From a virus (lineage: Duplodnaviria; Heunggongvirae; Uroviricota; Caudoviricetes), in IMG/VR virus record IMGVR_UViG_2713896773_000012: a DNA stretch of 4,990 nt. One strand, written 5' to 3'. The notes beneath the pieces are model-generated. The model was not told the origin of the DNA. It made no database searches and saw only the letters and a program-made list of their open reading frames with translations. A program made the translations under genes and the position numbers. Shown here piece after piece: positions 1 to 3,732 of this stretch; position 1 is the first letter of the stretch, and each line of letters starts with the position of its first letter.

Positions 1-414
1 CTGCATCAGGCTGTTTTTTGTTTCTTCCGCCTCCCGGATCCGGAACAGTTTTTCTGCTTCCGTATCCTTCACCCAGGCTGTGCCGTTCCACTTCTGAAAC
101 TCCCCTTCCGGGGATAACCAGGTGATATTTTCCGGTAGAGGTCCGAGTTCAGAAATAAATAACGAGTCGCCGGAAGCCACGTCATAGACGTTTTTTCCCC
201 GATGATCTTCAACGAGATGCCACGATGCCTCATCACTGTTGAAAACAGCCACGAAGCCTGCCGGAATATCTGGCGGTGCAATATAGGTACTGTTTGCTGG
301 CAGACCTGTATGAGGCGGAATATATGCGTCACCTTCACCAATAAATTCATTAGTTCCGGCCAGCAGATTATAAATTTTTATGGTCCGTGGTTGTTCACTC
401 ATTCTGAATGCCAT
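1..414 (-). CDS. tfa: Tail fibre assembly protein Tfa (lambda Tfa family); ATG at 414-412, 138 codons in window with no stop, 3' end beyond window start
   Basis: Manual translation of the minus strand from 414 gives [138 protein letters not shown], open to position 1. This matches lambda Tfa as I recall it. Start overlaps the upstream stop (TAATG). Not in the ORF track because no stop lies in the window. Confidence 0.85.
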
Positions 415-713
415 TACGCAAGCCTCACAATATAGTTAAATGCGATGTTTTTGACGGTGTTTTCCGCGTTACCAGCAGCGTTAACGGTGATGGTATGTCC
501 ATGTGAACCAATCGCAACGGAGTGCGTATGAGCACCAATACCGACAGTATGTGCGTGTGCACCTGCGCTTGCAGCAGTACCCGATACAGAGTGCGTATGA
601 GCGCCTGCAGAAGAAGTGTTAACACTGTATTTAGAATAATCAGGTGATCCACTTCCCGGAGCACCACTGGAACCACCTGAAACAAATGTCATCGAATGGG
701 TATGTGCACCGGC
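414..713 (-). pseudogene. Side tail fibre protein Stf, C-terminal remnant (about 100 codons) lacking its N-terminal part
   Basis: ORF-track protein 414..722 ends ...[31 protein letters not shown], the characteristic lambda Stf C-terminus, and carries (G/A)AHxHS repeats. It has no upstream Stf body: the sequence 5' of about 713 is J-derived in another frame. Boundary is approximate (about 10 bp). Confidence 0.75.
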
Positions 714-1026
714 TGTCCCCATGCATTTACCGCCCGGACTGTCAGCCTGTAATTTCCCAGCGCCAGCTGCGTGAAGCGATATGTGGTTTCCGTCGTCCGG
801 GCCGTGCTGACCAACCGCTCACTGCCGTCGTCCGCTGCCACGGTCAGGCGAAGCATAAAGCTCACCCCCTTCACCACCTTCGGCGTGTCCCAGCGCGCCA
901 GCACCTGGTATTCCCCGCTGTCTGCGGTGACTTCTGCGGTCAGGTGCTGAACTGCTGGCGGCGTGACACCATTCACCGTGCCGCTCTGGTCACCGTCAAA
1001 GTGCGCCCCGTTATCAGTTCATCCAG
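714..1026 (-). pseudogene. Host specificity protein J (central tail fibre), internal fragment of about 105 codons, no start or native stop
   Basis: Minus-strand translation reads ...[101 protein letters not shown], matching an internal stretch of lambda J. It is flanked by nu1 sequence upstream and Stf sequence downstream. Confidence 0.75.
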
Positions 1027-1518
1027 CGCGGCTGCTTTGTTCATGGCTTTGATGATATCCCGTTTCAGGAAATCAACATGTCGGTTTTCCAGTTCCGGAA
1101 AACGCCGCTGCACCGACAGGGGGATCCCGTCGAGAATACTGGCAATTTCACCTGCGATCCGCGACAGCACGAAAGTACAGAATGCGGTTTCCACCACTTC
1201 AGCGGAGTCTCTGGCATTTTTCAGCTCCTGTGCGTCGGCCTGCGCACGCGTAAGTCGATGGCGTTCGTACTCAATAGTCCCTGGCTGGAGATCTGTCTCG
1301 CTGGCCTGCCGCAGTTCTTCAACTTCCCGGCGCAGCTTTTCGTTCTCAATTTCAGCATCCCTTTCGGCATACCATTTTATGACGGCGGCAGAATCATAAA
1401 GCACCTCATTACCCTTGCCACCGCCTCGCAGAACGGGCATTCCCTGTTCCTGCCAGTTCTGAATGGTACGGATACTCGCACCGAAAATGTCAGCCAGCTG
1501 CTTTTTGTTGACTTCCAT
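973..1518 (-). CDS. nohA: Terminase small subunit Nu1 homologue (cryptic prophage Noh type); residues 1-169 Nu1-like, last 12 residues (TGRTLTVTRAAR) from out-of-frame J sequence
   Basis: ORF-track 181-aa protein MEVNKKQLADIFGASIRTIQNWQEQGMPVLRGGGKGNEVLYDSAAVIKWYAERDAEIENEKLRREVEELRQ... is near-identical to lambda Nu1 up to ...KAAALDELI, then diverges. The start lies about 190 bp downstream of cosN, as in lambda. Symbol nohA rests on Qin-like neighbours (ynfO, ydfO, gnsB, cspI); nohD/nohB of DLP12 cannot be excluded. Confidence 0.88.
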   Translation of the reverse strand: MEVNKKQLADIFGASIRTIQNWQEQGMPVLRGGGKGNEVLYDSAAVIKWYAERDAEIENEKLRREVEELRQASETDLQPGTIEYERHRLTRAQADAQELKNARDSAEVVETAFCTFVLSRIAGEIASILDGIPLSVQRRFPELENRHVDFLKRDIIKAMNKAAALDELITGRTLTVTRAAR

Positions 1519-1529
1519 TGTTCATTCCA

Positions 1530-1740
1530 CGGACAAAAACAGAGAAAGGAAACGACAAAGGCCAAAAAGCCCGCTTTCAGCACCTGTCGTTTCCTTTCTT
1601 TTCAGGGGGTATTTTAAATAAAAACATTAAGTTACGACGAAGAAGAACGGAAACACCTTAAACCGGAAAATTTTCATAAATAGCGAAAACCCGCGAGGTC
1701 GCCGCCCCGTAACCTGTCGGATCACCGGAAAGGACCCGTA
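1530..1740 (-). other. Lambda-type cos site: cosB (R1/R2/R3 gpNu1 sites and IHF site I1, about 1535-1660), cosN (12-nt cohesive end 1696-1707), cosQ region (about 1720-1740 by analogy)
   Basis: Reverse complement of 1696-1713 is GTTACG/GGGCGGCGACCT, the lambda right-end/left-end junction with the 12-nt cohesive end. Minus-strand sequence downstream reads CGCGGGTTTTCGCTATTTATGAAAATTTTCCGG... with repeated CGTTTCC(G/T)TTCT-type R elements and an A/T-rich IHF-like segment before the nu1 ATG. 1714-1906 matches the terminal 190 bp of lambda's right end as I recall it. Confidence 0.8.
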
Positions 1741-1906
1741 AAGTGATAATGATTATCATCTACATATCACAACGTGCGTGGAGGCCATCAAACCACGTCA
1801 AATAATCAATTATGACGCAGGTATCGTATTAATTGATCTGCATCAACTTAACGTAAAAACAACTTCAGACAATACAAATCAGCGACACTGAATACGGGGC
1901 AACCTC

Positions 1907-2140
1907 ATGTCAACGAAGAACAGAACCCGCAGAACAACAACCCGCAACATCCGCTTTCCTAACCAAATGATTGAACAAATTAACATCGCTCTTGAGCAAA
2001 AAGGGTCCGGGAATTTCTCAGCCTGGGTCATTGAAGCCTGCCGCCGGAGACTGTGCTCAGAAAAAAGAGTTTCTTCTGAAGCAAACAAAGAAAAGAGTGA
2101 CATTACTGAATTGCTCAGAAAACAGGTCAGACCAGATTGA
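1907..2140 (+). CDS. ynfO: Small Arc/Mnt-like ribbon-helix-helix DNA-binding protein (YnfO/YlcI-type prophage protein), 77 aa
   Basis: ORF-track 77-aa protein. The segment TRNIRFPNQMIEQINIALEQKGSGNFSAWVIEACRRRL fits the RHH pattern (beta-strand RNIRFP, helix A, G-x-S/N turn, helix B) and parallels P22 Arc (FNLRWP...ENGRSVNSEIYQRV). Symbol is assigned by position between nohA-like and ydfO-like, not by remembered sequence. Confidence 0.6.
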   Translation: MSTKNRTRRTTTRNIRFPNQMIEQINIALEQKGSGNFSAWVIEACRRRLCSEKRVSSEANKEKSDITELLRKQVRPD

Positions 2141-2197
2141 AGCAATTTAGATAATCGTGCAGACTACGCCCCCTCATATCACATGGAAGGTTTATCT

Positions 2198-2608
2198 ATG
2201 GATCAGGTAGTCATTTTTAAACAAATATTTGATAAAGTTCGAAACGATTTAAACTATCAATGGTTTTATTCTGAGCTAAAACGTCACAATGTCTCACATT
2301 ACATTTACTATTTAGCCACAGAGAATGTTCATATTGTATTAAAAAATGATAATACAGTGTTATTAAAGGGCCTAAAAAACATTGTGTCTGTCAAATTTTC
2401 AAAGGATAGGCATCTTATAGAAACGACCTCTAATAAGCTGAAATCCAGAGAGATCACATTTCAGGAATACAGAAGAAACCTTGCTAAAGCAGGAGTTTTT
2501 CGGTGGGTTACAAATATCCACGAACAAAAAAGATATTACTATACCTTTGATAATTCATTACTATTTACTGAAAGCATCCAGAAAACTACACAGATCTTAC
2601 CACGCTAA
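2198..2608 (+). CDS. ydfO: DUF1398-family prophage protein (YdfO/YbcV-like), 136 aa from the second ATG
   Basis: ORF-track ORF 2183..2608. The internal ATG at 2198 is preceded by GGAAGG (2185-2190) at 7-nt spacing, giving 136 aa ([30 protein letters not shown]...). Recognised as the YdfO/YbcV family; very AT-rich coding sequence. Confidence 0.75.
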
Positions 2609-2616
2609 ACCATAAC

Positions 2617-2645
2617 GTCCGGCTTCTCTCACTCCTGAGCCGGAC
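2617..2645 (+). terminator. GC-rich stem-loop just after the ydfO stop; candidate terminator with a poor U-tract
   Basis: Perfect 8-bp inverted repeat GTCCGGCT (2617-2624) / AGCCGGAC (2638-2645) with a 13-nt loop. The following sequence CTGCATTGGTTTAAT is only weakly T-rich. Confidence 0.35.
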
Positions 2646-2711
2646 TGCATTGGTTTAATAAAAACCATCAACAATTGTGATTTAGATATTCGGAACCATT
2701 CAAATATAACA

Positions 2712-2733
2712 AAACCCCGTAAAAACGAGGTTT
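2712..2733 (-). terminator. Rho-independent terminator downstream of gnsB (minus strand)
   Basis: Minus-strand RNA reads CCUCG-UUUUUA-CGGGG followed by UUUUGUUAUAUUU (5-bp stem including one G-U pair, then a U-tract). It lies 27 bp past the gnsB stop. On the plus strand the same stem has a C-A mismatch, so it is oriented for the minus strand. Confidence 0.55.
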
Positions 2734-2759
2734 ATGGATAAATTTTATTATTGAATACA

Positions 2760-2933
2760 TCAGATTAAATTAATCTTGACATCATAGCTTTCAAGACCCG
2801 TCATTTTTTCCCGTGCGGTAAACTGAATACTGGTAACTTCTTTCCCGGTCTTTTTCTTAAGTTCAATAATTTTTTTTGTTATATATTCAGAAATATCTGC
2901 TTCTGCTTTTGTTTTTAAGTTTTCAATATTCAT
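2760..2933 (-). CDS. gnsB: GnsA/GnsB-family small protein, 57 aa
   Basis: Manual minus-strand translation gives MNIENLKTKAEADISEYITKKIIELKKKTGKEVTSIQFTAREKMTGLESYDVKINLI, which carries the GnsA/GnsB signature (TGKEV...FTAREKMTGLESYDVKI). AGAGGA Shine-Dalgarno lies 4 nt upstream of the ATG at 2933. Below the length cut-off of the ORF track. Confidence 0.8.
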   Translation of the reverse strand: MNIENLKTKAEADISEYITKKIIELKKKTGKEVTSIQFTAREKMTGLESYDVKINLI

Positions 2934-2981
2934 CATTTCCTCTTTTAGTCTGTTATGACTTTCCAGTTACACAGTAAGTCG

Positions 2982-2987
2982 ATTATA
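2982..2987 (-). promoter_or_regulatory. Candidate sigma70 -10 hexamer (TATAAT) for gnsB
   Basis: Minus-strand sequence ...CTTATCTTTTACACGTTTGCACCATATAATCGACTTACTG... has a consensus TATAAT about 48 nt upstream of the gnsB ATG. The -35 region is weak (TTATCT/TTTACA with suboptimal spacing). Pattern-based only. Confidence 0.3.
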
Positions 2988-3104
2988 TGGTGCAAACGTG
3001 TAAAAGATAAGATGAAACATCGCAATAATCAACATACGATAGTCTAAATTTTACACAAACAGACAAAGAGAATTTTCCTGAATTATCAATGCAATAGCAT
3101 CAAA

Positions 3105-3335
3105 TCAACTCAAGAGCCTTATTGCTGCTTCCAGAATTTCTTCTGAAGTAACATGTCGATCCGCGGCTACATAAATGACTTTATGATCTCCGGTCAGAGA
3201 TGGAAACCCTGCGGCCATTACAGTAAGGTGTGTTTTTTCGCCATTTGGATATTCACGCATGATGGTGTTAACTCCAGTCATCGCTGGCACTACCACTGCT
3301 GGTTCAGAGTTAAAAAAAACTATGATTTTTTTCAT
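3105..3335 (-). CDS. ynfN: Small protein of the YnfN/YmcE family (76 aa from ATG 3335; alternative 51-aa product from ATG 3260)
   Basis: ORF-track ORF 3105..3377 begins at a non-ATG codon; the first ATG (3335) gives MKKIIVFFNSEPAVVVPAMTGVNTIMREYPNGEKTHLTVMAAGFPSLTGDHKVIYVAADRHVTSEEILEAAIRLLS. The internal ATG at 3260 has GGAG 11 nt upstream and gives 51 aa, the length I recall for K-12 YnfN. Position between gnsB and cspI mirrors the chromosomal gnsA-ymcE-cspG arrangement. Confidence 0.55.
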   Translation of the reverse strand: MKKIIVFFNSEPAVVVPAMTGVNTIMREYPNGEKTHLTVMAAGFPSLTGDHKVIYVAADRHVTSEEILEAAIRLLS

Positions 3336-3377
3336 GATGTTACCGTAGTATGTGAGTATCCATCGAATAGACACCAA

Positions 3378-3403
3378 GCAAAAAAGCTCCCGAAGGAGCC
3401 TTC
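3378..3403 (-). terminator. Strong Rho-independent terminator (minus strand) with a C(UUCG)G tetraloop, between the cspI remnant and ynfN
   Basis: Minus-strand RNA reads AAGGCUCC-UUCG-GGAGCUUUUUUGC: a stem of 7-8 bp (one G-U), a UUCG loop closed by C-G, then six U. Confidence 0.6.
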
Positions 3404-3606
3404 ATTTTCACTTTTTTAAATCCAACGACAGACGGCTGGCATTTAAGTATTGTGAAATATTATCAAATGTAATCATCATTGATTTACAAAAGATACATTT
3501 TGCCCCGAAAGGATTCATGTCAGAAACATCAAAAGATGATGTTCTATACTGGGAACCATGACAACACGGGCATCTAAAGTGAATATGGTTTGTAATATTG
3601 TCTACC

Positions 3607-3732
3607 TCAAAGCGCCACTACATGAACAGCGGCAGGACCTTTAGGTCCGTTCTCAATACCAAATTCAACTTCCTGATTCTCAGTTAATGTTTTGAAATCG
3701 TTGCTCTGAATTGCTGAGAAATGGACAAACAC
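3607..3732 (-). pseudogene. cspI: Cold-shock protein CspI, 3' remnant (codons 30-70 plus stop); 5' part displaced or removed by IS3
   Basis: Manual minus-strand translation from 3732 gives [41 protein letters not shown], the C-terminal two-thirds of a CspA-family protein (RNP2 motif VFVHF present, RNP1 KGFGFI absent). The reading frame runs directly into the IS3 right inverted repeat at 3733. Confidence 0.8.

Follow-up and report, generated by a model that had tools for sequence, protein, structure and literature searches.

A lambda-type cos site, intact in sequence, beside nohA in a Qin-type cryptic prophage of Escherichia coli

The stretch of DNA that was analyzed, a window of 4990 bp, is, judged by its gene order and identity, part of a Qin-type cryptic lambdoid prophage of Escherichia coli. 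Window positions 1-3732 are 99.5% identical to strain P377, and positions 1006-3732 match the Qin prophage of K-12 MG1655 at 99.56%. The gene order tfaQ-nohA-ynfO-ydfO-gnsB-ynfN-cspI is that of Qin, at 99.5-99.6% identity to these two genomes. The genes labeled in P377 over positions 1-3732 are tfaQ, pseudogene fragments of tail fiber genes and J, nohA, ynfO, ydfO, gnsB, ynfN and cspI, with IS3 beyond. Open reading frames of the window matched the Pfam families Phage_Nu1, Ig_J, Phage_fiber, Caudo_TAP, DUF3950, DUF1398, GnsAB, CSD and an IS3 transposase. The chromosomal flanks, which lie outside the window and were read in P377 and MG1655, place the insertion between ydfJ and rspB.

The left end of the window holds remains of a tail region on the minus strand. 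The gene tfaQ (1-414, continuing past the window edge) is adjoined by a C-terminal fragment of a side tail fiber gene (414-722), both of which were identified by Pfam, comparison with lambda and the P377 annotation. Next to these is an internal piece of the tail-tip gene J (709-1015), which matches lambda 17302-17608 at 91.9% identity, contains the Ig_J domain and is annotated as a J-related pseudogene in P377. At the other end, an IS3-adjacent deletion is evident at 3732/3733, where a truncated cspI (a 41-aa remnant, 3607-3732) abuts the end of IS3. Relative to P377, 2796 bp are missing, made up of the remainder of cspI along with rzpQ, rrrQ, ydfR, essD and ynfU, and by this comparison the lysis cassette is gone from the strain that carries the window. 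The exact cspI/IS3 joint in one piece was absent from every complete genome of the collection.

Between these ends, nohA (973-1518, minus strand) encodes a 181-aa homolog of Nu1, or TerS (Pfam Phage_Nu1, PF07471, E = 4e-101); the name stands for Nu one homologue. Relative to lambda Nu1, NohA carries the substitutions A75T and L132I, and its residues 170-181 are replaced. Residues 1-68 are identical to the gpNu1 DNA-binding domain (PDB 1J9I), residues 1-98 match the TerS chain of 6HN7 save for A75T, and residues 1-169 are identical to Nu1 of phages 2H10, phiSTEC1575-Stx2k and PhiR70_1. The C-terminus was replaced as a result of a deletion with its junction, Nu1::J, at 1006-1015 (minus strand), where lambda sequence ending at or before bp 703 is joined to lambda 17302 with an overlap of about 10 bp, and residues 170-181 are translated from out-of-frame J sequence. 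This deletion, of ~16.6 kb, took out A, every head gene, the majority of the tail genes and the 5′ portion of J. On the standard lambda map the lost stretch corresponds to A, W, B, C, Nu3, D, E, FI, FII, Z, U, V, G, T, H, M, L, K and I and to the initial 1.8 kb of J. Another deletion fused J, at lambda 17608, with the end of the side tail fiber gene.

No terminase large subunit accompanies nohA. A tblastn search of the window with lambda gpA gave a best E of 0.83, so a gpA gene hidden in another frame or on the other strand was rejected, and the Qin annotations of P377 and MG1655 contain no large subunit gene. An earlier note on this DNA, made from the sequence alone, had described a Nu1 homolog in which the N-terminal, cosB-binding region is kept and the C-terminus replaced, followed by neither gpA nor head genes; each part of that description holds, with Nu1 fused directly to J. 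Cos, Nu1 and A do not make up a functional packaging module here, as the C-terminal tail of TerS is replaced and TerL is absent.

The Nu1::J junction is not peculiar to this stretch, as 52 complete E. coli genomes of diverse origin have exactly the same one, with the genes annotated as nohA and "J-related protein." Qin of MG1655 has a different junction, between Nu1/A (lambda ~719) and stfQ, with stfQ starting at the gpA start codon (~5848-5870 of the MG1655 extract), and this type was found in up to 372 genomes. The two deletion junctions of Qin-type prophages are independent and lie within 17 bp of one another at the end of Nu1.

On its minus strand, the window is equivalent to lambda 48141..48502 followed by 1..703, across the circular junction (1065 bp, 98.2% identity), with lambda bp n corresponding to window position 1708 - n. 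The high identity to lambda on the cosQ side stops within ynfO (1907-2140), at lambda 48141. A complete cos site is found at 1527-1764 (minus strand), equivalent to lambda bp 48446-182, which is the 238-bp fragment containing cosQ, cosN and cosB used by Feiss and colleagues (PMC4856287). From lambda 48167 to bp 52, base-by-base comparison gave zero differences, a run of 388 bp of perfect identity (window 1656-2043) that takes in cosQ, cosN and I2. The packaging-termination element cosQ (GGGTCCT, 1731-1737, minus strand; lambda 48473-48479) is exact, and the spacer between it and cosN is the same as in lambda. Also identical is cosN (1694-1709, minus strand), which consists of the cohesive-end 12-mer GGGCGGCGACCT (1696-1707) and 2-bp flanks with the nick sites; in the string ACG-GGGCGGCGACCT-CG at 1694-1710, both CG nick dinucleotides are as in lambda. 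The AT-rich bent spacer I2 (1658-1690, minus strand; lambda bp 18-50) is essential and sets the spacing from cosN to R3 (PMC4856287). Since this stretch is identical to lambda, with no indel, the distance from cosN to R3 is exact.

The cosB layout R3-I1-R2-R1 is kept on the minus strand, with five differences from lambda: C53T, A73G, T102C, a 1-bp deletion at bp 137 and C151T. The critical TerS-binding site R3 (1643-1658; lambda bp 50-65) carries C53T at window 1655, and its bp 54-65, including 56, 58 and 59, are the same as in lambda. The IHF site and intrinsic bend of I1 (1617-1643; lambda bp 65-91) contain A73G at window 1635; matches to the IHF consensus in I1 and I2 keep their lambda positions, and the match at bp 79-91 is unaltered. 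R2 (1584-1599; lambda bp 109-124), which is inverted relative to R3 and R1, is identical at 16/16 positions. The accessory TerS site R1 (1543-1558; lambda bp 151-166) has C151T at its outermost base (window 1558) and an intact core. Chance resemblance to cos was rejected, since a 222-bp segment of the site matches lambda-type phages with E = 2e-104 and the perfect identity to lambda extends over 388 bp.

Every feature of a lambda-type cos that can be read from sequence is therefore present. Elements, order, orientation and spacing are those of lambda cos, as are T56, C58 and C59 of R3 and the recognition helix of TerS encoded in the adjoining nohA. The site differs from lambda in having four substitutions and a 1-bp deletion in cosB, an allele in common with PhiR70_1/2H10, and in having no complete Nu1-A operon or head genes after it. 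The earlier note had called the site intact and collinear with lambda, which is borne out for the identical cosQ, cosN and I2 and for the order within cosB, and it had placed it correctly. It had also proposed a base-by-base alignment to lambda, and in that alignment the cosN nick positions are identical, R2 matches at all 16 bases and the critical base pairs of R3 are unaltered.

In order to judge whether the cosB variants would disable the site, we compared their positions with those known to be constrained. R3 is the critical TerS site and R1 is accessory only, contacts seen by NMR span bp 55-63, mutations that impair packaging are known at bp 56, 58 and 59, lambda and phage 21 are discriminated at bp 56 and 59, and there are also constraints on cosQ, on the left half of cosN and on spacing (PMC9026076, PMC4669245). 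All of these (R3 bp 56/58/59, I2, the left half of cosN, cosQ and all spacings) are unaltered in the window. The specificity of packaging is set by the R3 base pairs together with the TerS recognition helix (PMC4669245), and here bp 56/58/59 are lambda-type and the helix matches.

The variants themselves are found in phages. Over lambda bp 8-72, 12 phage records among the matches listed are 100% identical to the window, T53 included, and these include 1H12, 2H10, Lambda_2E9, PhiR29_1, PhiR70_1 and phiSTEC1575-Stx2k. T53 occurs in 2H10, 1H12, PhiR29_1, PhiR70_1 and phiSTEC1575-Stx2k, T151 is common to 2H10, phiSTEC1575-Stx2k and PhiR70_1, and G73 is common to the four non-lambda complete phages that were aligned and to MG1655 Qin. 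In an alignment of the whole cos, all five variants of the window co-occur in 2H10, phiSTEC1575-Stx2k and PhiR70_1, each of which has full-length Nu1 and A genes in its record. In the 702 bp that run from cosN up to the deletion junction, the window and PhiR70_1 differ at 3 positions, one of which is the cosN change of PhiR70_1 itself. Phages of the 2H10 series were plaque-purified and amplified on indicator strains (PMC6969025), and the PhiR70_1 record gives E. coli C as host. Inactivation of cosB by C53T is thus unlikely, as all five variants are found in plaque-forming phages and the critical base pairs are unaltered. C53T does lie in R3 as nominally defined (bp 50-65), and the base concerned is the same in R1, R2 and R3 of lambda; we infer the neutrality of the change solely from its occurrence in plaque-forming phages. 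By this comparison, the cosB of the window is a natural, working allele of lambda specificity, because the same variants are found in 2H10/PhiR70_1-type phages with intact Nu1 and A.

The cos site of MG1655 Qin (6358-6607 of the MG1655 extract) has a different cosB allele, with C53 and A54. It carries private changes seen in none of the five complete phages of the alignment, among them G54A in the core of R3, which turns CGTTTCC into CATTTCC. These suggest that the MG1655 site may be a poorer terminase substrate than that of the window.

The two sides of the cos site have different relatives. On the cosQ side, the sequence is lambda/Qin-type, with 0 differences from lambda over 1656-2043, while from bp 53 rightward it is PhiR70_1/2H10-type. 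PhiR70_1 differs from window 1708-2200 at 13 sites, the nearest at lambda 48486. These flanking differences bound a crossover to the 68 bp between lambda 48487 and bp 52 (window 1656-1723), an interval that holds cosN. The comparison with MG1655 Qin has the same limit, as all 11 substitutions fall in 1011-1655 and none in 1656-3311; were they spread evenly, the probability of this clustering would be ~(650/2727)^11, or roughly 1e-7. Such a mosaic joint fits past recombination at cos. It could have arisen between free phages, before the prophage decayed, and because exchange between free phages is possible, it is no proof that a chromosomal cos was cut.

Sites of this type are frequent. Of 5426 complete E. 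coli genomes, 4590 (~85%) contain lambda-type cos matches, at 8770 places in all, with up to 8 copies per genome and 37 copies on plasmids. An intact Nu1-A boundary was found at 6076 places in complete E. coli genomes. From the difference between the two counts, orphaned or truncated copies are frequent, and they appear to make up a large minority of cos copies. The K-12 reference (NC_000913.3) contains no cos as an annotated feature, so orphan cos sites are invisible when helper-dependent mobilization or lambda-induced chromosome breaks are to be predicted.

The explanation that we regard as very probable joins two parts, a relic cos left beside the ~16.6 kb deletion and a site still competent for lambda-specificity terminase, which would be cut in trans and would not lead to efficient transduction. 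The deletion would have joined Nu1 at codon ~170 to the middle of J, sparing cos and nearly all of nohA. Recognition and cutting by a helper terminase are consistent with, and well supported by, the sequence, and cutting in trans is predicted because plaque-forming phages carry the same cosB variants and no critical position is altered. The terminase could be supplied by a co-resident or superinfecting phage of lambda specificity, such as lambda, 434, a 2H10/PhiR70_1-like phage or one of N15 type. An N15-specific terminase packages lambda-type DNA with ~50% efficiency (PMC4669245).

In lambda, TerL nicks cosN, terminase stays on the cosB end, moves in the direction from cosB to Nu1 and closes at the next cosQ-cosN (PMC4669245, PMC9026076). 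In the same way, TerL would nick cosN of the window, remain on the cosB end and translocate toward nohA, in the direction of decreasing window coordinates, passing through nohA, tfaQ and pinQ and on into host DNA. In P377 the border of the prophage would be crossed after ~4 kb, and the host genes beyond it are ydfJ, dcp, marRAB, the lsr operon and hipBA. Lambda-type terminases require a downstream cosQ-cosN in order to complete packaging (PMC4669245, PMC6687093). No second cos, and no exact cosN, was found in the 49.9 kb downstream in P377, the closest complete genome. Matches to cosN with 2 mismatches numbered 5 in this stretch, including the real site, a number no higher than chance would give (3.4 expected), and the four downstream have no adjacent cosQ. 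A second cosQ-cosN of the same orientation about one headful downstream, which would define a packageable unit of the kind used in lateral transduction, was thus rejected for the 49.9 kb of P377.

Efficient transducing particles are not expected, because cos-type terminases need a second cos to terminate. It also counts against cutting in trans that a single chromosomal copy would face competition from hundreds of phage cos copies. The earlier note had suggested that cos-dependent packaging of flanking DNA could follow. Of this, abortive packaging or rare particles with one cos are still to be expected, but proper termination is not, given that there is no second cos within 49.9 kb in P377. 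With no second cosQ-cosN within one headful, packaging would run on without a proper end. The predicted outcomes are a double-strand break made by terminase in the chromosome, stimulated recombination with incoming phages at a hotspot and, at most, rare and defective one-cos particles resembling those of lambda docL. NohA would most likely be an unexpressed passenger.

The lambda docL particles, in work by Sternberg and Weisberg in 1975 and by Sternberg in 1986, reportedly contained one cos, started at cos and ended in bacterial DNA. Particles from the window would be like them in starting at a chromosomal cos and running into host DNA with no terminal cos. The source of docL is said to differ, in that it was an induced, replicating and excision-defective lambda with its own terminase in cis.

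Two defective prophages give precedents for a cos used in trans. In the cos/nohD region of DLP12, cos is a recombination hotspot with lambda, where 10 of 19 lambda-DLP12 junctions adjoined cos (PMC3945230). Sp4 of O157 Sakai has no working terminase and yet is packaged, which its authors credit to the Sp14 terminase acting on an identical cos (PMC2669165). Like the Qin-type relic, Sp4 is a defective lambdoid prophage without a working terminase, and its cos is the same as that of a phage resident in the same cell. Unlike the relic, which is ~20 kb with one cos in situ, Sp4 excises, amplifies and is of packageable size. The Qin integrase is disrupted in K-12.

Gram-negative PICIs also lack a terminase and use the TerS/TerL of a lambda-like helper at a lambda-like cosN and cosQ (PMC9026076). 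The window resembles them in being a chromosomal element with these features and no terminase. PICIs, however, have a distinct cosB, encode Rpp, which redirects TerS, carry int, alpA and a replication module, and excise and replicate, whereas the window has a plain lambda-type cosB and no rpp-like or replication gene. The element is for these reasons, gene content and cosB type, not a PICI.

A site that is intact in sequence may nevertheless be silent in vivo, its integrity reflecting a recent deletion or gene conversion from a live phage, and we consider this rather unlikely. Codons 1-169 of nohA are identical at the DNA level to Nu1 of the live phage PhiR70_1, which means that there has been little time for decay. 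The private changes of MG1655 Qin, including G54A, look as they would under neutral drift, and the excess of cos places over Nu1-A boundaries makes orphan copies very common. A silent site would also agree with the results of a promoter scan, in which the stretch from cos to nohA gave no consensus promoter-like site, fewer sites were counted in total than expected from shuffling and the sole minus-strand promoter-like site of the area was inside the nohA coding sequence. Against silence, the site has no sequence feature that would block recognition, DLP12 cos acts as a hotspot upon lambda infection (PMC3945230), and Sp4 is packaged in trans (PMC2669165).

An adaptive role is very improbable. 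It would have the orphan cos kept as a helper-dependent origin for unidirectional mobilization, akin to lateral transduction, of ydfJ, mar, lsr and hipBA in lambda capsids. The cos site does face outward with host genes ~4 kb away, two independent Qin-type deletions both spared cos and Nu1, and the one-cos docL particles, begun at cos and ended in bacterial DNA, are reportedly a precedent. There is, however, no sign of selection, Qin itself lacks working replication and late functions here and has also lost the lysis cassette, and tails cannot attach in the absence of termination. The second cos that cos-type terminases need (PMC6687093, PMC4669245) is absent within a headful in P377.

That NohA is a dominant-negative TerS, which binds cosB or co-oligomerizes with helper Nu1, fails to recruit gpA and so blocks lambdoid packaging in the manner of PICI Rpp or SaPI Ppi, is barely credible, and the interference suggested in the earlier note is pure conjecture. 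In favor of this reading are the native DNA-binding domain and central region, with the oligomerization part kept, and the loss of the native last 12 residues, which belong to the TerL-binding tail; TerL is bound poorly by TerS that has been shortened by 30 residues at its C-terminus (PMC9026076). Here only 12 of ~40 C-terminal residues are lost, so that gpA binding may persist, nohA has no promoter-like site between it and cos, a terminator-like hairpin follows gnsB on the nohA strand, the prophage late operon is disrupted, and the late/lysis region that would drive transcription across cos is deleted. A literature search found no phage-related phenotype of nohA. K-12 MG1655, which has a similar nohA, is the standard permissive host for lambda.

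The preferred explanation, a relic cos that would be cut in trans by helper terminase, is of a kind already known, since DLP12 and Sp4 are earlier examples of defective lambdoid prophages with an orphan cos usable by the terminase of a related phage. Qin/nohA has long been on record as a locus, and the window holds a variant of it that is set apart by its deletion junction. Neither this identity nor the high frequency of orphan lambda-type cos sites in E. coli had been recognized in the earlier note. The variant shares with MG1655 Qin the location, the gene order nohA-ynfO-ydfO-gnsB-ynfN-cspI and the established gene name nohA, and it differs in the junction (Nu1::J rather than Nu1/A::stfQ), in the cosB allele and in the IS3-adjacent loss of lysis genes. 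If cut in trans, the site would add to three documented processes, namely recombination when a lambdoid phage infects a cell with a defective prophage, complementation of such prophages by others resident in the same cell and the occasional packaging of host DNA. Its importance beyond bookkeeping is small, given a known locus and a lambda-type cos in ~85% of complete E. coli genomes. A more general role for orphan lambda-type cos sites as directional entry points, rather than neutral debris, is speculative and improbable. Such sites would be cut in trans when a lambda-specificity phage infects or is induced, would give rare one-cos capsids with neighboring host DNA, in this case ydfJ, marRAB, lsr and hipBA, and would let prophage remnants exchange modules for packaging and structure with live phages; the mosaic joint in the cosN interval would be a footprint of this.

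Other parts of the window also show changes. A search of the whole window against Rfam gave no structured RNA at the gathering threshold. In tfaQ, 18 substitutions relative to P377 are clustered within 188 bp (98-285), with zero elsewhere in 1-3732, and this cluster looks like a gene-conversion patch from another tail fiber assembly paralog. The ynfN open reading frame (3105-3377, minus strand), which matched no Pfam family, has a 1-bp indel relative to MG1655 at window 3312 and encodes 90 aa here, compared to 51 aa annotated in MG1655 and 76 aa in P377. The gene ydfO (2124-2627, DUF1398) is 84% identical in DNA to the lambda open reading frame lambdap78, which is labeled "head protein" in RefSeq and "YbcV" in the records PV340556 and PV340577.
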